Notes under the pieces: generated by a model
Database searches by the model: none
The model's input: only the letters and a program-made list of their open reading frames with translations
What the model was told of the DNA's origin: nothing
Program-made: the position numbers and the translations under genes
Source of the DNA: Vulcanimicrobiaceae bacterium
GTDB taxonomy: Bacteria; Vulcanimicrobiota; Vulcanimicrobiia; Vulcanimicrobiales; Vulcanimicrobiaceae
Direction of reading: 5' to 3'
DNA length: 19,793 nucleotides
NCBI GenBank assembly: GCA_046262595.1
Contig: JBHEMM010000039.1
Location: forward strand, 1 to 19,793
In this document: in pieces, positions 5,191 through 17,170 of the stretch
Position numbering within the stretch: position 1 is the first letter of the stretch
How the letters are laid out: each line of letters opens with the position of its first letter

Positions 5191-5955
5191 CTACCTCAGG
5201 GACCGTGCGAACGCGCCGGCGCGCTGCGCCGCCTGTTCGCCGCGCGCCGATCCGTATGCGTCGATCAACGCGCTGCCGACGATGAATCCGTCGGCGAGAT
5301 CGCTTACCGCGGCGACGTGCGCACTGCTGCTGATGCCGAACCCGACGGCGAGCGGCTTGTCCGTTACGTCGCGCAAGGCGCCGAGCTGCTCGCGCAGCGG
5401 CGCGAAATCCGGCGTGCTGGCTGCGCCCGTCACGCCCAAACGCGAAACGACATAGACGAAACCGCCGGATTGCGCGGCAATACGCGCGGCGCGCTCGTGC
5501 GGCGTCGAGGGGGCGATGAGCAGCGGCATGCACAAGCCTTCGCGTTCGAGCGCCGCGCGCAACTGCGCGCCTTCCTCCAGCGCAACGTCGGGCACGATGA
5601 CGCCCGCCGCGCCGGCCCGTGCGGCCGCGCGCGCGAATCGCTCGATGCCGTACCGGTAAACCGGATTGAAATAGGTGAACAGCACGATGGGCGGCGCATG
5701 TGCGGCAACGCGCTGTACCAGTTCCAAAGTTTGGCTCATGCCGGTGCCGCGAGCGAGAGCGCGCGCGCCGGCCGCCGCAATCGTGGGTCCGTCGGCAAGC
5801 GGGTCACCGTACGGAACGCCAAGCTCGATCGCCGCTGCGCCCGCGTGCGTAAGCGCGTCCACGAGCATGACGGTTGTTTCCATGTCGGGATCGCCTGCCA
5901 TCACGTAGGGGATGAAGGCGGGCTTGTCTTTTTTGAAGATATGTTCGAGGGTCAA
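5191..5955 (-). CDS. trpA: Tryptophan synthase alpha subunit
   Basis: [43 protein letters not shown] and GFIVGSA. The TTG start overlaps the trpB TGA stop. Confidence 0.95.
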
Positions 5956-7148
5956 GGCGACGCCGGCGGGCGCAGCGTGCGGATTTGCGCAATGTCTTTG
6001 TCGCCGCGTCCACTGAGGTTCACAAGGATCAGGTCGTCCGCTCCGCGATCCGCGGCGAGCTTTCGAGCGAACGCAATGGCGTGCGCGCTCTCGAGCGCGG
6101 GAATGATGCCTTCTGTTTTTGCGAACGCCAAGAATGCTTCGAGCGCTTGCACGTCCGTCACGGGAACATAAGTCGCGCGGCCCGTTTCTTTCAAGTGCGC
6201 GTGCTCCGGGCCGACTCCCGGATAATCTAAACCGGCGCTGATCGAATGCGTGTCGATCACTTGGCCCCCATCGGTTTGCAGCAGATACGAGCGCGAACCG
6301 TGCAGCACGCCCACGCTGCCTGCGGAAAGCGCCGCCGCGGTGCGTCCGCTCGCAATGCCTTCGCCCGCGGCTTCAACGCCCCACAGACGCACGCCGGCGT
6401 CCTCGAGGAATCCGGCAAAGATACCCATTGCGTTGCTGCCGCCGCCCACGCACGCGACAACGTCGGTGGGCAGGCGGCCGAATTGTTCCAAACACTGCCG
6501 GCGCGATTCGATGCCGATCACTTTCTGGAATTCACGCACGATGTATGGGTACGGATGCGCGCCGACGACGCTGCCGATGACGTAAAACGTGTCGTCGATG
6601 CGTGCCGCCCACTGCCGGAACGCCTCGTTCGTCGCATCCTTGAGCGTCTGCGTCCCGCCCGCAACGGGATGCACCCGCGCACCGAGCAATTTCATGATAT
6701 AGACGTTGAGCGCTTGCCGTTCGACGTCGAGCGCGCCCATGTACACGTCGACGGGGATGCCGAACTTCGCACCGACGGTTGCGGTCGCAACGCCGTGCTG
6801 CCCGGCGCCCGTCTCGGCGATGATGCGCGTCTTGCCCATGCGCCGCGCGAGCAGCGCCTGTCCGACCGTGTTGTTGATCTTGTGCGCGCCCGTGTGATTC
6901 AGGTCTTCGCGTTTGAACGCGAGCCTCGCGGCGGAAACGTCCGCCGCATAGTTCAGCGCCTGATACACCGGCGATGGGCGCCCGACAAAATCGCGCAGCA
7001 TGGCGTGGTACTCATCCCAGAACTGCGCGTCCGCAAATGCCGTCTGCACCGCGCGTTCTAATTCCGCGAGCGCCTCAACGAGCACTTCGGGTACGAACCG
7101 GCCGCCGAATTCCCCGAAATAGCCGCGCGCGTCAGGCTGCATCGGCAT
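5952..7148 (-). CDS. trpB: Tryptophan synthase beta subunit
   Basis: [28 protein letters not shown] (PLP lysine), [30 protein letters not shown] and NLSGRGDKD. Start ATG 7148 or 7142. Confidence 0.96.
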
Positions 7149-7764
7149 CCCGCACCGCTTGCACGAATGCCCGCATTTTCGCAGCGTCTTTTGCGCCGGC
7201 CGTCTCGATGCCGCTGCGCACGTCAACGGCAAACGGCCGTACGGTACGCACGCAGTCCGCAACGTTCTCGGGGGTTAGGCCGCCGCTCACGACGATTCGC
7301 CGTTTGCGCGCGATTGGTGCGAGCGCACTCCAATCGAACGCAACGCCCGTGCCGCCGTGCTTGCCGCCGGCGGACGTATCGAACAGCAGCATGGCGTTGG
7401 GGTGTCGCGCGGCAGCGTCTTGCATCTCGGCTGCATCTTCCTGTCCGGGACGCACGTGAACCGCTTTGATGACGCGCGCGCCGGCCTCGTTCACGAAGTG
7501 CGGCGCTTCATCGCCATGCAACTGCACGACAAGGCCGGGAAAAATCGCTTGCATTCGCTCGATATCGGCGAGCGCCGGATCGGCGAAAACGCCGACGGCG
7601 GTAACGAACGGCGGCAGCTCATGCGCGATCTCGCGCGCCGTACGCTCGTCAATGCGCCGCGGCGAATCCGCGAAAATCATACCGATCGCATCTGCGCCCG
7701 CGTGCGCGGCGAGCAATGCATCGCGCGCGCTCGTGCACCCGCAGAACTTTATTCGCGTGCGCAT
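7132..7764 (-). CDS. trpF: Phosphoribosylanthranilate isomerase
   Basis: [36 protein letters not shown] and VDVRSGIE. Confidence 0.93.
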
Positions 7765-7770
7765 GAAAGG

Positions 7771-8571
7771 TTACGCGGGCGTGTGGACGGCGGTTTTGAG
7801 CGAAGCGATCAGGCCGGCCGGATCGTCGGAACGCATGAGAGCCTCGCCGATCAGAAAACCGCGCGCGCCGGCCGCATGCAGCCGCAGAATGTCCGTGGGC
7901 CCCTGCATGCCGCTCTCGCTTACCGCCGTCACGCCGGCTGCGACGCGCGGCAGCAGCATTTCGCTCACGCCGAGATCCGTTTCGAACGTGTGCAGATTCC
8001 GGTTGTTTATTCCCACCAGGCGCGCGCTGAGCGCCGATGCGCGTTCAAGTTCAGCGGCATCGTGCACTTCAACCAGGACGTCAAGGTCATAAGCGCTCGC
8101 TTCGGCCATGCATTCGCGCAGTGTGTCGTCGTTCAAACCTGCGACGATCAAGAGCACCGCATCGGCACCGTAAGCGGCGGACTGCGCGATCTCGTACGGC
8201 GTGCTCAGAAAATCTTTGCGCAGCAGCGGACGTGTGCTGCTCGCGCGAGCCAGCGAAAGGTAGGCAAGCTCTCCCAAGAAGTGATCGGATTCGGTCAGCA
8301 CGCTGATGCAGTCAACGCCGGCGCCGTCATAGACGCGCGCAACGTTGGCCGGCTCGAAATTGCGCGCGATAAGGCCCACCGAAGGTGAAGCGCGTTTTAT
8401 CTCACCGATGATCGCCGGTCCGTTGGAAGCGTTCAACGCCGCGAGGAAAGGGCGCCGCGCGCTTTTGCACGCGAGCGCCAAGGCGCGCACCGTATCGTAA
8501 GGTTCGATCGCCTCCTCGCGTTTCCTGACAACCGATTTGGCGGCATAGATGCGCGAAAGGATGTCAGCCAT
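7771..8571 (-). CDS. trpC: Indole-3-glycerol phosphate synthase
   Basis: EIKRASPS, ISVLT, LRKDF, GADAVLLI, LVEVHD, GINNRNL, VSESG and LIGEALMR. Start ATG 8571 overlaps the trpD stop (ATGGCTGA). Confidence 0.95.
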   Translation of the reverse strand: MADILSRIYAAKSVVRKREEAIEPYDTVRALALACKSARRPFLAALNASNGPAIIGEIKRASPSVGLIARNFEPANVARVYDGAGVDCISVLTESDHFLGELAYLSLARASSTRPLLRKDFLSTPYEIAQSAAYGADAVLLIVAGLNDDTLRECMAEASAYDLDVLVEVHDAAELERASALSARLVGINNRNLHTFETDLGVSEMLLPRVAAGVTAVSESGMQGPTDILRLHAAGARGFLIGEALMRSDDPAGLIASLKTAVHTPA

Positions 8572-9571
8572 GCGAAAACCGCCTGGCACGTTCGAAGATG
8601 GCCGACGCGCCGCCCTCGCGCAGTTGCGTGCGAGCCAGTTCGAGGCCCTCTGGTATCGTGCGCGTGCGGCCGCAAACCGTGAAGACCAGTGCTGCGTTCA
8701 GCGCAACGACGTCTGCGCGCGGCGAACGCTCACCGGCAAGAATGTTTTCAAAGGCGGCGCGACAAGCCTCGGTGCTGCCGCCGCGCAGCGCGTCGAGCGG
8801 CGCGCTGACGCCATAGTCTTGCGGATTGAGGGTCCAGCGCTCGCGCCGGTCGCCTTCGAATGCGTACACGGACGTGGGCCCTTCGCCGCCCACCTCGTCG
8901 ATACCGCTGGATGCATGGACCACCGCGCCGCTCACTCCCAGGCCGCACAGAACGTCGCCGACGAGCTGGACATGTTCCTCGCGCGCGACGCCGACGACCT
9001 GGTGCGTTGCAAAGGCAGGGTTCGTGAGCGGCCCCAGCACGTTGAAGATGGTACGCACGCCGAGCTCGCGGCGCACGGGTGCGACGTTCTTCATCGCAGG
9101 GTGGTAGCGCGGCGCAAACATGAACGCAAAGCCTGCCTCCCGCAGCATCGCCGCCGCACGTTCCGGCGCGACGTCGATCCGCATTCCCTGCGCTTCTAAA
9201 ACGTCGGCGCTGCCGCACGCGCTCGAAGCGGCGCGGTTGCCATGTTTGGCAACGGGCACGCCGGCCGCGGCTACAGTAAGTGCGGTCATCGTCGAAATGT
9301 TGATCGTGTTGGCGCCGTCACCGCCGGTGCCCACCACGTCGACAACCAGCGGCAGCCCGTGCTCGACGCGTAAGCTGCGATCGCGCATGGCTTGCGCAGC
9401 GCCGGTAACTTCTTCGAGCGCCTCACCTTTGGAAGCGAGCGCCGCGAGCAATCCGGCGGCTTGTATCTGCGTGAACGCGCCATCCATGATTTCGCCGATC
9501 ATGGCGGCCGCCGCTTCACGCGAAAGATCTTCGCGCGCGATTAGTCCTCGAAGTAAAGAGGCGTACTCCAT
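8564..9571 (-). CDS. trpD: Anthranilate phosphoribosyltransferase
   Basis: DVVGTGGDG, NIST, AKHGNRAASS..GSADVLEA, FAPRYHPAMK and RTIFNVLGPLTNP. Confidence 0.95.
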   Translation of the reverse strand: MEYASLLRGLIAREDLSREAAAAMIGEIMDGAFTQIQAAGLLAALASKGEALEEVTGAAQAMRDRSLRVEHGLPLVVDVVGTGGDGANTINISTMTALTVAAAGVPVAKHGNRAASSACGSADVLEAQGMRIDVAPERAAAMLREAGFAFMFAPRYHPAMKNVAPVRRELGVRTIFNVLGPLTNPAFATHQVVGVAREEHVQLVGDVLCGLGVSGAVVHASSGIDEVGGEGPTSVYAFEGDRRERWTLNPQDYGVSAPLDALRGGSTEACRAAFENILAGERSPRADVVALNAALVFTVCGRTRTIPEGLELARTQLREGGASAIFERARRFSHG

Positions 9572-9602: not shown

Positions 9603-9956
9603 CTATCGAACGAGTTCGATAACCGATAATTCGGCGGCGTCGCCGGGGCGCACGCGCGTTTTCGTGATGCGCGTGTAGCCGCCGCTGCGGTCCTTGAGCG
9701 CCGGCGCGATTTGCTCGACCAGCTTCTTCACGACCGCGGGTTCGGTCAGATACTCCGCGATTTGCCGGCGCGCGTGCAGGTCGCCGCGCGAAGCGGTGGT
9801 GATCAGACGCTCGACCACCTTACTGATCTCCTTGGCCTTGGTCGAAGTGGTCTCGATTTTCTCGTGTTTGAAGAACGAGGTCGCAAGGTTGCGCAGAAGC
9901 GCCTTGCGGTGCCCGTCGGTGCGGGAAAGTCGTTTGTAAGCGATTTGATGCGGCAT
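9603..9956 (-). CDS. rplQ: 50S ribosomal protein L17
   Basis: LSRTDGHRKALLRNLA, IETTSTKAKE, ERLIT, GGYTRI and RPGDAA; lies directly after rpoA. Confidence 0.97.
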   Translation of the reverse strand: MPHQIAYKRLSRTDGHRKALLRNLATSFFKHEKIETTSTKAKEISKVVERLITTASRGDLHARRQIAEYLTEPAVVKKLVEQIAPALKDRSGGYTRITKTRVRPGDAAELSVIELVR

Positions 9957-9968
9957 TGAAATCTCGCG

Positions 9969-10895
9969 CTACGGCTGGCGCAGCGAGAGTCCCCTCTCTT
10001 CCAAAACTTGTTTGATTTCGTCGAGCGACTTCTTGCCGAAGTTACGCATCTTGATAATTTCGTCTTCAGTCATATCGAGCAACTCGGAGACCTTGGAGAT
10101 GCCCGCGCGTTTCAAGCAGTTGAACGAGCGAACCGAAAGATTGAGCGATTCCACCGGAATATCCCACTCGCTCGCCGGCGCGGCGGCAACCGGCTTTTCC
10201 TCGTTGGTAAAATTGACGAACAGATCGAGCTGGTCTTGCATAATCGTCGCCGCGGTCGAGAGCGCTTCGTCCGGCGTAACGGATCCGTTGGTTTCCATCT
10301 CCACGGTGAGGCGATCGTAATCGACGTTTTGGCCGACGCGCGTATCATCCACGCTGAAGTTCACCTTGCGGATCGGTGAGAAAATCGAATCGAGCGGGAT
10401 CAGCCCAATCATATGCTCCACGTTGCGCTGGCGATCCGCCGTGACGTAGCCGCGGCCTTGTTCGATGCCGATTTCCATTGAGAGCTTGGCGCTCTTCGAG
10501 GTGAGCGTCGCAATGTGGTAGCCCGGATCCAGAATCTCGACGTCCCCGTCCGGCACGATGTCGGCCGCGGTGACTTCGCGCTCGCCGCTCACGTTGAGGG
10601 TGAGCACTTTGGGTTCGTCGGAATTGAGTTTGACCGGAAGGCCTTTGAGGTTGAGCATCAGCGCGATCGTGTCTTCGACCAGCCCGGGGATGGTCGAGAA
10701 CTCGTGCAGCACGCCGTCGATCTTCATGTATGTAACGGCGGCTCCCGGAATGGAGCTGAGTAAAATGCGCCGCAGCGCGTTGCCCAGGGTAATGCCGAAG
10801 CCGCGCTCGAGCGGCTCGATGATGAACTTGGCATAATTCTCACGCCGCTCGCGGACTTCGATATTGGATCCGGTGGGCGAATCAAGGACGGTCAT
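9969..10895 (-). CDS. rpoA: RNA polymerase alpha subunit
   Basis: EPLERGFGITLGNALRRILLSSIPG, VLHEFSTIPG, LSVRSFNCLKRAGI and RNFGKKSLDEI. Confidence 0.98.
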   Translation of the reverse strand: MTVLDSPTGSNIEVRERRENYAKFIIEPLERGFGITLGNALRRILLSSIPGAAVTYMKIDGVLHEFSTIPGLVEDTIALMLNLKGLPVKLNSDEPKVLTLNVSGEREVTAADIVPDGDVEILDPGYHIATLTSKSAKLSMEIGIEQGRGYVTADRQRNVEHMIGLIPLDSIFSPIRKVNFSVDDTRVGQNVDYDRLTVEMETNGSVTPDEALSTAATIMQDQLDLFVNFTNEEKPVAAAPASEWDIPVESLNLSVRSFNCLKRAGISKVSELLDMTEDEIIKMRNFGKKSLDEIKQVLEERGLSLRQP

Positions 10896-10932
10896 GTGTT
10901 CTTCTGTTTCCTTTGTGGCCTCTTACGTTATC

Positions 10933-10953
10933 CGCAAGAACACCGTTCTTGCG
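10933..10953 (-). other. Hairpin in the rpsD-rpoA spacer
   Basis: CGCAAGAAC-GGT-GTTCTTGCG: 9-bp perfect stem with a 3-nt loop and no U-tract. Confidence 0.6.
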
Positions 10954-10984
10954 ATCGCACGCCTAGAGGCGGGGTGGCGGGTTA

Positions 10985-11644
10985 TTAGCGGCTGTAGTAT
11001 TCGACGATAAGCTGCTCGTCGACCGGAGTGTCGATTTGCTCGCGGCTTGGCAGCTGCACGATGCGCGCGGTTTGTTCGCCGTCGTTCCATTCCAGCCACT
11101 CGGGTGCGCGGCGGTTTTTCGCCACTTCGAAATTCGCTTCAAAAATCGTCGACTTCTTGCTGTTCTCACCGATCGTGATCACATCGCCCGACTTCACGAT
11201 GAACGACGGAATATTCACCAGACGTCCGTTCACGCGGAAATGCCGGTGCGTCACGAGCTGGCGCGCCTGCGCGCGGCTGTTCGCGAGATTCAAGCGATAG
11301 ATGACGTTGTCCAAACGACGCTCGAGCAGCTGCAGAAACGTGCGCCCGGTTTGTCCGGGGACGCGTGCAGCTTCACGGAAATAATTCTCGAACTGCGTTT
11401 CGTGCACGCCGTAGTAACGGCGCATCTTCTGCTTCTCGCGCAGCTGGCGCCCATATTCGGAGATCTTCTGACGCGTGGGTTTACCTTGCGTCTTCTGACC
11501 CGGCGCGGTGCCGCGGCGTTCGACGGCGCACTTTTTAGAAAGGCAGCGGTCGCCCTTCAGAAACAGCTTGATCTTCTCGCCCATTTTGTTGGATGCCGTT
11601 TCGCGGCGGCAAAGGCGGCAGACCGGTCCCGTATATCGTGACAT
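10985..11644 (-). CDS. rpsD: 30S ribosomal protein S4 (zinc-ribbon type)
   Basis: MSRYTGPVCRLCRRE, KLFLKG, SEYGRQLREKQK, LERRLDNV, QARQLVTH and EQLIVEYYSR. Confidence 0.98.
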   Translation of the reverse strand: MSRYTGPVCRLCRRETASNKMGEKIKLFLKGDRCLSKKCAVERRGTAPGQKTQGKPTRQKISEYGRQLREKQKMRRYYGVHETQFENYFREAARVPGQTGRTFLQLLERRLDNVIYRLNLANSRAQARQLVTHRHFRVNGRLVNIPSFIVKSGDVITIGENSKKSTIFEANFEVAKNRRAPEWLEWNDGEQTARIVQLPSREQIDTPVDEQLIVEYYSR

Positions 11645-11666
11645 AAATTGAAATGCTCTCTCTTGG

Positions 11667-12062
11667 TTACACGCGGCGCCGTTTTGGCGGACGGCAGCCG
11701 TTATGCGGAATCGGCGTTACATCTTTGATGAGGGTTATTTCAAGGCCGGCGGCCTGCAGCGAACGGATCGCCGCTTCGCGACCGGCGCCCGGGCCTTTGA
11801 CCAACACTTCGGTCGACTTCATTCCGTGCTCCATCGCTTTGCGCGCGACGGACTCCGCGGCCATCTGCGCGGCGAACGGCGTCGATTTCTTGCTTCCCTT
11901 GAAGCCCAGATTTCCGGCCGACGCCCATGCGAGGACGTTGCCCATGTTGTCCGACATCGAGACAATCGTGTTGTTGAACGAGGCGTGAATGTGCGCAACG
12001 CCCGATTGAACGTTCTTAAATTCACGCTTTTTGCGTGTTTTGGCCTGTTTCTTCGCTGCCAT
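11667..12062 (-). CDS. rpsK: 30S ribosomal protein S11
   Basis: [36 protein letters not shown] and [18 protein letters not shown]. Start ATG 12062 (MAAKK). Confidence 0.97.
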
Positions 12063-12241
12063 CGGTCCCCAAAGTGTTTCTTTATCCTGGCCGCTCAACG
12101 AGAACGGTGTCGTCGCCTCGACTGATCAATGGTGAAACCATCGCTTCATCTGATACGCGGGTCCGCGGCGAGAGGATCCGGGCTGCGCTCGTGCGGCTAA
12201 AGCACTGCGCGGCACGCCCGAAGAGAGATGACGGGCGCCAA
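12063..12241 (-). ncRNA. Candidate structured cis-regulatory leader of rpsK-rpsD-rpoA-rplQ (family not recognised)
   Basis: About 180 nt between the predicted TSS and the rpsK ATG, with five hand-folded hairpins: 12214-12238, 12185-12210, 12158-12180, 12127-12143 and 12096-12115. Confidence 0.5.
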
Positions 12242-12247
12242 GGCGTT

Positions 12248-12276
12248 ATTCTACCGGAGCCGGCCGCCCGGGTCAA
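12248..12276 (-). promoter_or_regulatory. sigma70-type promoter for rpsK-rpsD-rpoA-rplQ(-trp)
   Basis: TTGACC (12276-12271), 17 nt, TAGAAT (12253-12248): near-consensus with optimal spacing. Confidence 0.8.
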
Positions 12277-12388
12277 GCCCATTTGTGTCACCCGAGATCG
12301 AAGCACCGACGGCTCACACGGACCGCTGAAATGCTTCGCCCGGCGAAACCGCTTGCATGCTTCGACCAGCCCAGCAGACCGCTCGCAC

Positions 12389-12425
12389 AAAAAGGCAAGG
12401 GCCCCGGCCGAAGCCGGAGCCCTTG
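12389..12425 (-). terminator. Intrinsic terminator after the outer-membrane protein gene
   Basis: CAAGGGCUCCGGC-UUCG-GCCGGGGCCCUUG: 13-bp stem with a C(UUCG)G tetraloop, then CCUUUUUGU. Confidence 0.8.
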
Positions 12426-12472
12426 TTCCCGATCTGTTAGCCTGCGCGATCCGCGGGGGCCGAAGGCCGGGA

Positions 12473-12507
12473 GGCGTGGAGCGCGAAGCGCGCATACGCC
12501 TTTTTTT
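12473..12507 (+). terminator. Plus-strand terminator-like hairpin at the 3' end of the OMP gene
   Basis: GGCGT..GCGCG-AAG-CGCGC..ACGCC followed by T7 on the plus strand. Confidence 0.4.
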
Positions 12508-13903
12508 AGAAGTGAATGCCTAACCCAATGTACGGGCCATTGTGCGTGACATCCGACGGAGCGTTGGTCTTGTTATTCAGGCGGTCGCCCAAATAGCCGA
12601 AGTCCAGGAACACGCCGCCCGGGGTACCAAAGTTCAGCGCGCCGCCGATTTGGTACTTGAGCATGCGGTACGAGAGATCGAACGGGCCCGTGGGGCAAAC
12701 CGTTACATCACACGTGCCTTTGATGCTCGGGTAATAGTACGCGCTGCCGTACAGCGAGAACGGTTTGTCGAGGTCGGGCAGTTTTTCAAGCCCGAAGCCA
12801 ACACCGGTTTGACGCGGATAGCCGTAGTTGCTGCTGCGCCACAGGTAGCCCACGCCGACGTAGATGCGCGGTTCTGCGATGCGCAGGCCAACGCGTGCGT
12901 CGATGTCGCGATCGCGGCCGATGAACGCCGGCACATACGTGGAGCCGGCACCGCCGATGACCGTAACGTTACACTGGGAACCCGCCGGAGCAGGAGCCAA
13001 GTCGGAACAGTTGTGCGCGAACGCGTAGTTGCGGAAGTCGCCTGCGACCATCCAGGGCAAGTTGAACAGATTGAACTCGAGTGCACCGCGAAGCGCGTAC
13101 GAGCCGCCCTTCTGACGGTTGCCCGGGCTGAACTCGTTATAGACCTGCGGGTTGAACAGGTAGTCGCCCGCGATGAAGTGGTCCTGATACGGCGCTGCGG
13201 CCGGAGCAGGCGTCGCGGTAGCTGCCGGCGTCGTCGGCGTCGGTGCGGTGACCGGAGCCGGCGGCGGAGTCGGCGGTGCGTAACGCACGACGACGACGTG
13301 CTGATCGGGAACCCATTGAACGTATGCGCCCATGCCCTCGGAAATGACGCGCACCGGGACCAGAATCTGGCCGCGGTACATCATCGGGGGCACATCCAGC
13401 GGACGCGTCTCGCCGTTGATCGTGACTTCCGCTTTCCCGAGCGTCACTTTGACGTCGGAGCCCGGTTTGGTCACGTCGACGGTACGCGTTGCCGGATCGA
13501 ACGCAACGGTTGCGCCCATTTGTTCGAACATCGAACGCAGGGGCACGAGGATCGTTCCGCCGCGCACGAGCGCAGCAAGAACGCGCCCTTGCCTAAGGAC
13601 ATCGGGTTTTGCATACACGTGGTGATCGTTGAACAAGATCGGCACTGTGCCCGAGGGCGGCGCACCGAATTGCATCGGCGGAGCCGATACGGTGTTGGTC
13701 GTTGTCGGGGTCGTTGTCGGGGTCGTTGTCGAAGCCGGTGCCGTCGTTGCGGCGGCAGCCGGAGATGCGCTTGGCGTAGCCTGCGCGATCACGTTGTGTC
13801 CTACGTTTCCAAGTGATGCGTGACTTGCCGGAGCAGCGACTGCAGTGAGCCCTAGACCAGCTGCGATCAGCGTGGCCAAGAGTGCGGTGCTCAGTCGATT
13901 CAA
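12506..13903 (-). CDS. Secreted protein: signal peptide, Thr/Pro linker, copper amine oxidase-like N-terminal (stalk) domain and probable C-terminal outer-membrane beta-barrel
   Basis: TTG start with AGGAGG. Hydrophobic signal peptide; ILVPLRSMFEQMGATVAFD and LDVPPMMYRGQILVPVRVISEGMGAYVQW typical of the Cu-amine-oxidase N-terminal domain; alternating aromatic/Gly strands ending YIGLGIHF. Confidence 0.75.
   Translation of the reverse strand: MNRLSTALLATLIAAGLGLTAVAAPASHASLGNVGHNVIAQATPSASPAAAATTAPASTTTPTTTPTTTNTVSAPPMQFGAPPSGTVPILFNDHHVYAKPDVLRQGRVLAALVRGGTILVPLRSMFEQMGATVAFDPATRTVDVTKPGSDVKVTLGKAEVTINGETRPLDVPPMMYRGQILVPVRVISEGMGAYVQWVPDQHVVVVRYAPPTPPPAPVTAPTPTTPAATATPAPAAAPYQDHFIAGDYLFNPQVYNEFSPGNRQKGGSYALRGALEFNLFNLPWMVAGDFRNYAFAHNCSDLAPAPAGSQCNVTVIGGAGSTYVPAFIGRDRDIDARVGLRIAEPRIYVGVGYLWRSSNYGYPRQTGVGFGLEKLPDLDKPFSLYGSAYYYPSIKGTCDVTVCPTGPFDLSYRMLKYQIGGALNFGTPGGVFLDFGYLGDRLNNKTNAPSDVTHNGPYIGLGIHF
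13697..13731. repeat. 12-nt tandem repeat (about 3 copies) encoding the TTTP linker
   Basis: GGTCGTTGTCGG at 13697 and 13709, with a truncated copy at 13721; in frame. Confidence 0.85.
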
Positions 13904-13920
13904 ATTAAATGCCTCCTAAT

Positions 13921-13950
13921 AATACTGGGGCATGAGCCCTAGGCAGTATT
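13921..13950. promoter_or_regulatory. Inverted repeat/hairpin upstream of the OMP ribosome-binding site
   Basis: AATACTG (13921-13927) and CAGTATT (13944-13950) enclose GGGC-ATGA-GCCC. Confidence 0.45.
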
Positions 13951-13966
13951 CCCAGGTTCGGCGCTC

Positions 13967-15142
13967 CTAAAGCGGGAGCGGTAACCCGGGTAGACGCCAT
14001 ATCCAGGCCACGCCACCCAACACCTCAACGCAAGAAAGCACAAAAGCGATGCGCCCGGCGAAATTATTTTGCAAACCAGGCAAGCAGCCGATAGCCAGAG
14101 TGGCGAGGGTCGGTGCCGCCACCTGAGCGAGCAGGAGCGCGAGGTTCCACACACCGAGTGCCGTTGCCGCGTGCGCCCGCGGCACGAAGCGGCAGCCGAG
14201 CGCCCAGTCGGCGGTAAGGAAGATGCCCCATCCGCCGCCGGCAAGCGCTGCCGCCAGCGCCATGCCGGGCCATGTCTGCCGCGTCACCAGCAGTGCAATG
14301 CTTGCCGCAAAAATGCCGCCGCCGATGCTCACCAGCGCCCGCCGATCCCAGCGGTCGGCCGCACGCGCGCAAAGGGCCGCTCCGGCGGCACCTGCGGCCG
14401 TCACGATGAGCAGCAGATAACCCGTCTGCGATCGCGCCGCCGGTTTCCCTAGCACTTCTTGCATGAAGAAAAACACATAACCCAGCAGGGTGTAGAATCC
14501 CACATACATCAGCGTGCGGGAAAGGAAGAGGTCGACGTAAGCGCGGTTCGCAGGCAAGCGGTCCTGCGGCTGCAGCGCCGGCGGCTTGAGCCCTTGCGTA
14601 TATGTTGCCGTTACGGCGCACGTGATGAGCAGCCCGGCGATAAGCAGCGCGGCGACCGCTCGGGCGTTGGCGACGAGTGAGGCGGCGATTGCTCCGGCGG
14701 CGTTACCGGCACTTTGGAGGCCCGCCATCCAGGACGAAGCCGCGCCCGCGCGTTCGTCGGTGACAAAATCCGGAATGACTGCTTGGTACGGGCCAACCGC
14801 CAGATTCATGCCGATCTGCACGAACAGCACCGCCGCGAAGAGTTGGGCGTATGAAGCGGCGGTGTAAAACCAAAAAATCGCAGCCGATGCGACCAGCGTA
14901 CCTGCGGCATAAAACGGTGCGCGCGTCCGCAGACGGTCCGAGGCAAAGCCGGCGCCGATCTGCGTGAAGCCGGCTGCAATTGCGCCCGACGATGCGAGCA
15001 GCGCGTACGCGCCCAGTTCCCATCCCGGAGCGATCTGCGCCGAGCGCGCCTGCATCGAAACGCCGAGCAGCGCTGCCCAGACCGCTTGAACGCCGAACCA
15101 AAATACGCCGAGGCGCGCAGCGTCAGGCGTGCGCCGCTGCAT
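13967..15142 (-). CDS. MFS transporter
   Basis: Many hydrophobic helices, GFASDRLRTRAPF and ADRWDRR motif-A-like loops, and PYQAVIPD. Start ATG 15142 overlaps the upstream gene by 20 nt. Confidence 0.85.
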   Translation of the reverse strand: MQRRTPDAARLGVFWFGVQAVWAALLGVSMQARSAQIAPGWELGAYALLASSGAIAAGFTQIGAGFASDRLRTRAPFYAAGTLVASAAIFWFYTAASYAQLFAAVLFVQIGMNLAVGPYQAVIPDFVTDERAGAASSWMAGLQSAGNAAGAIAASLVANARAVAALLIAGLLITCAVTATYTQGLKPPALQPQDRLPANRAYVDLFLSRTLMYVGFYTLLGYVFFFMQEVLGKPAARSQTGYLLLIVTAAGAAGAALCARAADRWDRRALVSIGGGIFAASIALLVTRQTWPGMALAAALAGGGWGIFLTADWALGCRFVPRAHAATALGVWNLALLLAQVAAPTLATLAIGCLPGLQNNFAGRIAFVLSCVEVLGGVAWIWRLPGLPLPL

Positions 15143-15860
15143 ACCGGTATTCGGGGAGGTTGTCCACGTCGTACGCAAGCTCGGGGCTCGCGCCGCGAAC
15201 CGCGCACGCGGGAATGCCGAGCAGGCGCTGCGCGTGCGTCTCCGCATGCCGCACGCTCAAGCGTCCGAGCAGAAAACGCAGCAGCAAAGGGAGCCCGGCA
15301 AGCCGCACCATGTGCACCGGGCGTTTGCGCGCGTCGAACAATTTTACCGAGAGGCCCTCGATCAGCGGCCCCGCGCCGGACGGAATGGCGAACACGCCGC
15401 CGTTCACGACCTTTTCGCCGTCAAGCGTTATACCGAACGGCGGCGCACCGGGAAACCGCCGCACGAAATCCGCATGTTCGGTAAGCGGAACCGCCAGCGA
15501 ATCCGGCGGCACGCGGCGCAAGAACTCTTGCAGCGGACGCGTCCCGATGTACGGCATGTCGCTGGTAAGATAAAGCAAAGGCGATTCCGGTCCCCACGCA
15601 CGCAGCGCAAGCCGCTGATTCGCCGCGCCGTTTGCCGTTTCGGGAATAAACCGCTCAATGCGCGCGGCTGTCAACTGCCGCGCTTGGGCGCCGCCTACGA
15701 CCGCGATTCGCTCCACGCCTGCGCCGCGCAAGCTCTCTATCGCCGCTTCGAGCATCGTCGTGCCGCGAATGCGCGCGAGCGCTTTCACGTCCGTTCCAAT
15801 GGCCGCGGCGAACGGTCCGTCCACGCGGCCGCCCGCAGTAATAACCGCGCAGTACGTCAA
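15123..15860 (-). CDS. MobA-like NTP transferase (nucleotidyltransferase) family protein
   Basis: AVITAGG, KALARIRG, TSDMPYI and C-terminal AYDVD. The TTG start overlaps the DUF72 TGA stop. Confidence 0.8.
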   Translation of the reverse strand: MTYCAVITAGGRVDGPFAAAIGTDVKALARIRGTTMLEAAIESLRGAGVERIAVVGGAQARQLTAARIERFIPETANGAANQRLALRAWGPESPLLYLTSDMPYIGTRPLQEFLRRVPPDSLAVPLTEHADFVRRFPGAPPFGITLDGEKVVNGGVFAIPSGAGPLIEGLSVKLFDARKRPVHMVRLAGLPLLLRFLLGRLSVRHAETHAQRLLGIPACAVRGASPELAYDVDNLPEYRYAAAHA

Positions 15861-16702
15861 TCGAACAGGCCGGGCTGCTCGGGTAAACGAACTTTCGGCC
15901 GCGCGAGGGGCGCGCCCGGTCCGTAGCGCGCTTGCAGCATCTCGAGCAGTGTTCCGGCATTTCGCGCTGCATTGCCCCGCGCGTGATTATTGAAAAAGGC
16001 GTACGTTGCTTCAATGCGTTCGTCGATTTCGGCGATGCGGTCGGTCCACGGAGCCAGCTCTTCGGGCGAGTAGTCGTAGTCGTACCGCGTCGTGTTATCG
16101 CCCGTCCACCACTGCGCGGAATTGCGTCCGTGAAAGCGCACGTAGCCCGCAACGCCCGTCACGTCGGAACTGGGATGCATGAGTGTTTCGTATGACGGCA
16201 TGTCGACGTTGCACCAACCCGCATTCATCTCCGTGAGCAGCTCGAACGTCTGCGGCGTTTGCCACTCGCGGTTGCGGAATTCAACGACGAGCGGCAGCGG
16301 CTCGAGCGCTGCGAGCATCGCCCGGAGGTGACGGCGCGTTTCGGCGTTCGGGCGGAATCCGTTGGGCAGTTGGACGAGCGCGGCGCCGAACTTTTTTGCG
16401 GCCGCGATGGGGAGCACGCTTTCAACGAACGTTTTAGCATCCGTGTGCACGGCGCCCGAAGCAGCGGCCGTATGCGTCACTGTTTGCGGTACTTTGAAGC
16501 AGAAGCGGAACTCCGAAGGCGTAACCTTGAGCAGGCGCGCAACGGTTTGCGGCGCCGGTACGCCGTAGAACGACGAATCGATTTCGACGGCTGAAAAATG
16601 TGCGGAATAGAACGGCAGCATCTCGCTGCCGCGCGCCGTCGCGGGATAAAACGTTCCCAGCCAATCCTTGTAAGAAAAGCCGCATGTCCCGACGTAAATC
16701 AC
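15857..16702 (-). CDS. DUF72 (YecE-like) domain protein
   Basis: IYVGTCGFSYKDWLGTFYP, AVEIDSSFY, FCFKVPQTVTH, LVQLP, VEFRNREW, YVRFHGRN, RYDYDYS and FFNNH. GTG start at 16702 behind GAAAGGGG. Confidence 0.9.
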   Translation of the reverse strand: MIYVGTCGFSYKDWLGTFYPATARGSEMLPFYSAHFSAVEIDSSFYGVPAPQTVARLLKVTPSEFRFCFKVPQTVTHTAAASGAVHTDAKTFVESVLPIAAAKKFGAALVQLPNGFRPNAETRRHLRAMLAALEPLPLVVEFRNREWQTPQTFELLTEMNAGWCNVDMPSYETLMHPSSDVTGVAGYVRFHGRNSAQWWTGDNTTRYDYDYSPEELAPWTDRIAEIDERIEATYAFFNNHARGNAARNAGTLLEMLQARYGPGAPLARPKVRLPEQPGLFD

Positions 16703-16723
16703 CGTGCCCCTTTCTTCGCGCGC

Positions 16724-16752
16724 AAAGAAAAGGCCCGGCGATATGCCGGGCC
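16724..16752 (-). terminator. Intrinsic terminator after rpsM
   Basis: GGCCCGGC-AUAUC-GCCGGGCC (8-bp stem) followed by UUUUCUUU. Confidence 0.85.
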
Positions 16753-16783
16753 CATAACTGTCCATCCGTCTGTGTGGGAGGGC

Positions 16784-17170
16784 TTATTTCTTCGCGGCGA
16801 CCTTTTTCTTGTTGCCGACGGTCTTTTTCGGACCTTTGCGAGTGCGCGCGTTGGTCTTCGTGCGCTGGCCGCGCACGGGAAGGCCCCGCCGGTGACGAAT
16901 GCCGCGATAGCAGCCGATGTCCATCAACCGCTTGATGTGGCCGCCGACTTCGCGGCGCAAGTCGCCCTCGAGTTTGATCCCTTCGGCGTCGATTGCCTCG
17001 CGGATCTTCTTCTCATGCTCTTCGGTCAGCTCTCTGACGCGAAGGTCGGGGCTCAGACCGGCGCGCGCAAGGATGCGCTGCGAGGTGGGCAGGCCGATGC
17101 CGAAGATGTACGTGAGCGCGATCTCGATGCGCTTTTCGCGCGGAAGATCGATACCGGAAATACGTGCCAT
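16784..17170 (-). CDS. rpsM: 30S ribosomal protein S13
   Basis: [30 protein letters not shown] and [28 protein letters not shown]. Start ATG 17170. Confidence 0.98.

Follow-up and report, generated by a model that had tools for sequence, protein, structure and literature searches.

A conserved pseudoknotted leader RNA before rpsK in Vulcanimicrobiales, most likely a new translational ribosomal protein leader, with a second motif before rpoA

In E. coli, ribosomal protein S4 represses rpsM, rpsK, rpsD, and rplQ but not rpoA, and its operator is a double pseudoknot which does not resemble rRNA (PMC3616713; PMC10931766). A second S4 site before rplQ has also been suggested for E. coli, on evidence which is not strong in the account given by PMC10931766. 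Four predicted leaders located before rpsM or rpsD have been assigned to S4, and resemblance to rRNA was reported for only a quarter of the new leaders in the same survey (PMC7247131). The Bacillus S4 leader is marked by a GUAA sequence (PMC3849166), and S4 is known to contact helix 16 (PMC2665224). A leader directly before rpsK appears in neither Table S1 nor Table 1 of PMC7247131. The two RNAs described below, a leader before rpsK and a motif before rpoA (motif 2), have no description in Rfam 15 or in the literature searched, which covered few subscription journals.

The window (the whole stretch of DNA analyzed, 19,793 nt) carries on its minus strand, in order, secY, adk, map, infA, rpmJ, rpsM, four unrelated genes, a terminator, a promoter, the leader, and rpsK-rpsD-rpoA-rplQ. 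The identities of secY, adk, map, and rpmJ are presumed from their translations. The features needed here are as follows.

9603..9956, minus strand: rplQ (L17)
9969..10895, minus strand: rpoA
10911..10974, minus strand: motif 2, a conserved structured RNA in the rpsD-rpoA spacer (covariation)
10985..11644, minus strand: rpsD (S4; PF00163/PF01479), single copy in the assembly
11657..11664, minus strand: AAGAGAGA, the rpsD RBS between rpsK and rpsD, with which the P1 loop is predicted to pair (complementarity)
11667..12062, minus strand: rpsK (S11; PF00411), first gene
12066..12070, minus strand: SD-like GGGGA ahead of rpsK (sequence)
12081..12088, minus strand: conserved single-stranded tail RRGAWAAA (alignment of relatives)
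12091..12107, minus strand: P5 stem with conserved UCG(U) in the loop at 12097-12101 (covariation; loop conservation)
12107..12119, minus strand: core strand N-A-GGCGA-CGACA-S, in which GGCGA (12113-12117) closes pseudoknot 1
12120..12151, minus strand: invariant A and P4, with a conserved base (G-C, A-U, U.G) and a variable tip (alignment, covariation)
12158..12180, minus strand: P3 stem with the 9-nt loop NN-UCGCC-G-N, in which UCGCC (12167-12171) supplies the 5' strand of pseudoknot 1
12185..12210, minus strand: P2 hairpin, variable, found mainly in close relatives
12214..12238, minus strand: P1 hairpin with the CU-rich loop UCUCUCUU at 12221-12228, complementary to the rpsD RBS
12248..12276, minus strand: sigma70-type promoter TTGACC-17-TAGAAT (pattern match), with a probable start site near 12241
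12396..12425, minus strand: hairpin resembling an intrinsic terminator, with a 13-bp stem and U-rich tail, at the end of the upstream unit (CuAO-N-domain gene)
16784..17164, minus strand: rpsM (S13)

The detachment of rpsM from rpsK, claimed in the original prediction, was borne out: rpsM lies 4.7 kb upstream of rpsK, and the four genes between them (12506-16765, minus strand) are non-ribosomal and encode a DUF72 protein, an NTP transferase, an MFS protein, and a CuAO-N-domain protein. The CuAO-N gene is found directly ahead of rpsK in many family members, and the rpsM-rpsK gap measures only ~600-750 nt in family f2 and genome G007. Right behind rpsM, at about 16725-16755 (minus strand), a terminator-like hairpin with a U-rich tail overlaps the start of the listed DUF72 ORF, whose true start may be later than listed. 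At the other end of the operon, a trp-like cluster at 5191-9571 (minus strand) trails rplQ after a spacer of only ~30 nt; from their translations we take its genes to be trpD, trpC, trpF, trpB, and trpA. Four closed genomes (G007, G009, G012, and G018; 16S loci L149-L152) each have just one 16S gene, located on the rpsK strand and 7-20 kb downstream of that gene; the three rRNA regions scanned yielded no tRNA. Apparent frameshifts in rpsD or rpsK at L008, L009, L044, and L144 are probably assembly errors.

The near-consensus promoter proposed before rpsK was found as described. It is the sole match within 11500-13000, where shuffled sequences give 0.5 +/- 0.8, and the pattern is kept upstream of rpsK in 84/107 relatives compared with 45/2140 shuffles. 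As judged from this conserved motif, rpsK would have its own promoter after the split from rpsM. The distance from the -10 box to the rpsK start at 12062 is 185 nt. No terminator was found between promoter and rpsK, and the leader holds no conserved reading frame, the spacings being spread evenly over the three frames. A leader peptide or attenuator was ruled out on these two grounds.

The suggestion that this RNA belongs to no known family also held, with no Rfam 15 match at the gathering threshold in the window and nine weak matches, none of which overlaps 12063-12276. RF00140 (Alpha_RBS) had no match in the organism's own genome even at E<=1. The leader resembles the E. coli operator described by RF00140 in its operon genes, its pseudoknotted 5' position, and its expected translational control (PMC3616713; PMC10931766). 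However, the E. coli operator lies before rpsM, overlaps that gene, and includes the start codon, whereas the leader lies before rpsK and stops short of the SD. The Bacillus/Firmicutes and S4-Fusobacteriales leaders are loosely similar by eye, with a stem lying between a YGA and an A-rich run, here of the form (G)NAA (PMC7247131; PMC3849166). In those leaders the stem follows GUAA and is followed by YGA; the leader described here has the opposite order, with the word GAWAA 3' of P5. Moreover, they sit before rpsD or rpmJ-rpsM rather than rpsK, and PMC3849166 found pseudoknots unsupported for the Bacillus RNA, while the leader here is pseudoknotted. S4-Clostridia, S4-Bacteroidia, and S4-Flavobacteria (Eckert and Weinberg, 2020) are likewise lineage-restricted alpha-operon leaders assigned to S4 by precedent and lacking clear rRNA mimicry; these precede rpsM or rpsD, and the leader is set apart from them by its location and by having no Rfam match.

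For comparative analysis, 107 rpsK-anchored loci were collected (23 from one search, the 24 top matches of another, and 60 hand-picked, so as to spread the genera, from the 150 matches listed in the latter), which makes the sample not random. The core AGGYGACGAC was present in 89 of the 107 loci, and is invariant among these by construction; 18 loci were without it. Some rows in the alignments, counts, and tree come from five unpublished genomes, G011 (L017), G186 (L164), G193 (L173), G195 (L172), and G030 (L026), and no conclusion depends solely on them. From the 79 rpsK-anchored cores of <=125 nt, 52 were aligned with MAFFT. Across P3, pseudoknot 1, and P4, 90.9% of cells were paired compared with 76.7% in shuffled alignments, and 108 cells showed double changes compared with 29; slid controls gave 30-49% paired. 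The number of pairs with a double change in these 52 sequences (11) was not above shuffles (72/500). RNAalifold recovers P3 and P4 unaided. In a larger set of 96 sequences, which leans towards the model because it was fitted to it, double changes were found at 7/7 pairs of P3, 4/6 of P4, and 4/4 modelled pairs of P5. The covariation that had been looked for in relatives' rpsK upstream regions is therefore present in P3, P4, and P5. On this comparative evidence, the leader is a real, conserved, lineage-specific, pseudoknotted structured RNA of Vulcanimicrobiales (Eremiobacterota).

Structural support comes from covariation among relatives rather than from the single sequence. Folded alone, the window sequence reaches an MFE of -65.4 kcal/mol (z -0.37), and 63/200 shuffles were equally good, so that a list of hairpins is not by itself evidence. 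All arms of the five hairpins originally proposed are present; the second, fourth, and fifth needed correction. Hairpin 2 (P2) looks, by eye, limited to close relatives. Hairpin 4 turned out to be only the variable tip of P4, and the conserved GAU/GUC base below it had been overlooked. Hairpin 5 (CGACGA/UCGUUG, -5.5 kcal/mol) competes with the covarying P5 (CCGUUC/GAGCGG, -8.7 kcal/mol) and is better read as a possible second pseudoknot, seen without P5, between CGAC and the P5 loop. The alternative GCCGC/GCGGC pairing has no comparative support, as the GCGGC word at 12094 sits in a variable arm of P5. Also missing from that first account were the pseudoknot candidate of the P5 loop, the pairing of P1 with an RBS, and the second motif before rpoA.

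The proposed UCGCC/GGCGA pseudoknot was supported: both words are present, and the middle pair switches in step among relatives. Pseudoknot 1 is paired in 52/52 aligned sequences, with four of its five pairs invariant and the middle G-C pair replaced by A-U in 2/52. Among 111 distinct leaders the middle pair is A-U in 6 and G.U in 1. On the rpsK tree (142 rows, 270 columns, many forks open) the five A-U rows (UCACC/GGUGA) need five changes, at least three of which are forced by supported branches. The apex of P5 reads UCG in 83/89 loci and CCG in 5, compared with 30% in shuffles. UCG is also kept in 8/8 GGUGA variants, from which it follows that the P5 loop would pair with the second CGA of the core and not the first. 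This second pseudoknot, core CGA(C) with the P5 loop, is possible, and its pairing is read from conservation because the partner is invariant.

Motif 2 is a separate structured RNA in the rpsD-rpoA spacer. Across 47 of the 54 distinct copies, paired cells make up 94.0% compared with 78.9% in shuffles, and double changes were found at 12/18 pairs. In its lower stem, exchanges of G.U to A.C and A.A to G.G were seen by eye. A motif 2 model matched 79/80 genomes of family f1, 0/2 of f2, and none elsewhere among 151 genomes. Among metagenome loci, 8 of 80 searched (120 fetched) carried motif 2, all 8 between rpsD and rpoA. It has no Rfam match. Its 5' strand has a perfect match in a 16S-23S spacer which beats the null (0/30); as this match is present in only 1/4 genomes, it was treated as chance. 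A 16S match reached 1/40 in the profile scan against shuffles, at a site which, from the helix layout, is presumably not a paired helix. By eye, GAUCG-hairpin-CGG and GAUAA are common to motif 2 and the leader, and the distributions differ, family f2 having just the leader and genus g26 just motif 2.

The distribution of the leader was examined further. A pattern scan of GTDB genomes gave at least 118 loci, and rpsK was downstream in 105 of the 118 matches listed; among the other 13, two inspected were cut-short true leaders and four inspected were unrelated. A covariance model gave strong matches (>=48 bits; next best 24.7) in 49/151 genomes of the phylum, namely the organism's own genome, 46/80 in f1, and 2/2 in f2; family f3 and the rest of the families searched had none, nor did genera g26 (30 genomes) and g42 (3). 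The own genome has one strong copy of 73 bits, the next match scoring 17.9. In f3, rpsM runs straight into rpsK and the leader is absent (7/7 loci). The leader is confined to loci at which rpsK stands apart from rpsM, a link that amounts to one evolutionary event and not many. Records L032, L037, L058, L067, and L081, which are titled as other phyla, have an rpsK nested within Vulcanimicrobiales; for this reason these likely mislabelled bins are not evidence of wider spread.

On the rpsK tree, five changes (at least two forced) account for loss of the core. Where a promoter was called at a core-less locus, the leader measures just 55-91 nt in 15/16 cases. With 18/107 loci lacking the core, and the four such genomes checked each keeping a single rpsD, the core is dispensable. 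An extra copy of rpsD as the cause of core loss was not found in 5/5 genomes. The median rpsK-rpsD gap is 12 nt in core-bearing loci (n=40) and 2 nt in core-less ones (n=14), leaving out 5 duplicates, 2 frameshifted loci, and 1 locus without rpsD. One complete genome with neither motif (L006/L264, G018) has very short rpsK-rpsD and rpsD-rpoA spacers.

Several features point to translation as the step affected. The distance from the tail to the rpsK start is 11-28 nt in 76/89 loci (3 nt in one, which is probably mis-parsed), and all 12 longer spacers (34-51 nt) fold a hairpin which leaves 16-22 nt. The start codon is TTG in 98/107 loci. By these sequence measures, the effective spacing of the leader to a mostly UUG start is kept. 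At the other end, P1 begins <=11 nt from the -10 box in 84/84 loci where a promoter was called and both genes are present (mean z -1.57); P1-like hairpins also occur where the core is lost. The P1 loop is CU-rich in 35/84 loci. In the window, its predicted pairing with the rpsD RBS, 560 nt away, reaches -10.4 kcal/mol compared with -7.8 at the best site elsewhere (1333 nt scanned). A GA-rich word precedes rpsD in 27/35 CU-loop loci compared with 23/49 loci without such a loop, 8/35 CU-rich loops have no partner word at rpsD, and before rpsK the word was found in 0/35. Complementarity of cognate loops and RBSs was 4.68 compared with 3.99 +/- 0.11 for permuted pairs (0/500 as high), and for the 27 double positives 7.0 compared with 6.63 +/- 0.13 (3/500), statistics which are inflated by kinship and by the preference of any CU loop for purine-rich sites. 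The automatic P1-loop call is also wrong in some rows. Within 1.2-1.4 kb the rpsD RBS is the best partner of the loop in 15/25 scannable loci, including the window, and a better site exists elsewhere in 10/25. Relatives with matched flanks around this complementarity include L007, L014, L057, and L156. The complementarity suggests translational coupling in only part of the lineage. A related arrangement is known from E. coli L20, where a long-range mRNA pseudoknot and translational coupling serve operon control by an r-protein (PMC3616713); in contrast, the pairing predicted here joins a 5' hairpin loop with the RBS of the second gene.

The best explanation is a lineage-specific r-protein leader acting on translation initiation with S4 as its effector, to which we give a probability of about 0.6. 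That the leader is a cis-acting translational element is very probable; the choice of S4, made by precedent only, is somewhat better than an even bet. The covariation shows that, in the ~180-nt UTR, P3 forms with pseudoknot 1 and the inserted P4; from conservation, the pseudoknot of CGAC and the P5 loop would probably follow, and then the A-rich tail. By analogy with described leaders, surplus S4, the product of the second gene, would bind this compact fold ~11-28 nt upstream of the weak UUG start, and bound S4 may block or trap the 30S subunit. With rpsK untranslated, the CU-rich P1 loop could, in part of the lineage and as its complementarity suggests, silence rpsD as well by pairing with its RBS. 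Motif 2 may give rpoA-rplQ separate control.

An unlikely alternative is that the leader serves no feedback at all, and instead enhances translation from the weak UUG start, provides a 30S standby site for it, or is a structure for mRNA stability or processing. The conserved effective distance to the start fits such a role, as do the roughly five losses of the core, at least two of them forced, which mostly leave short leaders. However, core-less lineages mostly use TTG too, and the invariant unpaired bases would point to a specific ligand.

The identity of the ligand was approached through rRNA and protein comparisons. Profile scans of one relative's rRNA operon (16S/23S) gave look-alikes below the shuffled maxima (39/40, 40/40; 22-30/30), and rRNA mimicry is therefore not supported; the own genome has no assembled 16S. 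Likenesses seen by eye in relatives' 16S, of the P5 flanks to what we take to be h16 and of P4 to what we take to be h23/Kt-23, failed these scans. Residues that track core loss number 4 in S4 and 2 in S11; as the changes are mostly conservative and confounded by clade, no ligand was inferred from them.

It is quite unlikely that S11 is the ligand, with P4 and its flanking adenines read as a permuted copy of 16S helix 23/Kt-23. The P4 consensus GAUCGG/CCGGUC shares 5/6 pairs, including the U.G, with UAUCGG/CCGGUG of relatives' 16S, a segment we assume to be helix 23, the S11 site. Invariant A's flank P4 as in a k-turn, and the 2n-like position is G in 81/89 loci; Kt-23 tolerates G or U there (PMC2790904). 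However, this position is C in 4/89, which blocks Kt-23 folding (PMC2790904), and the 1b-like position of P4 is not conserved (A41/G34/C33/U3). Helix 23 ranks only 12/127, at 7.4 bits compared with a null maximum of 14.4, and an S11 leader is absent from Table S1 and Table 1 of PMC7247131. A fuller form of the proposal is just as doubtful: a tandem double-pseudoknot leader would sense S11 and not S4, relay repression to rpsD through loop/RBS pairing across rpsK, and a related module would put rpoA-rplQ under r-protein feedback.

L17, RpoA, or another protein as the ligand of the leader, of motif 2, or of both is improbable. Motif 2 does sit immediately 5' of rpoA-rplQ and shares its GAUCG-hairpin-CGG and GAUAA with the leader, but the two differ in distribution (f2 versus g26), and no match to Rfam L17 families was found. 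A metabolite riboswitch aptamer just ahead of the RBS would suit the compact pseudoknotted core, the A-rich tail, and the many invariant unpaired bases, but is highly improbable for an RNA found only before rpsK, with no conserved anti-SD for rpsK (0/35 CU loops match) and no terminator.

The leader is most probably a new r-leader that acts on translation, and the operon carries a second new motif ahead of rpoA. Finding new r-leaders is in itself an incremental step, 20 having been reported in one paper; here, two well-supported RNA families are added for a phylum in which the literature searched showed no r-leader. The locus also offers a natural experiment, in which the operon was split, a leader was gained, and the leader was repeatedly lost alongside tighter rpsK-rpsD spacing. 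Leader and motif 2 together bear on the way in which repression passes along the alpha operon, and on whether rpoA-rplQ has its own site. If the unlikely S11-sensing, two-element reading were true, this would be a control system undescribed so far, and rpoA-rplQ would be under a feedback that rpoA escapes in E. coli.
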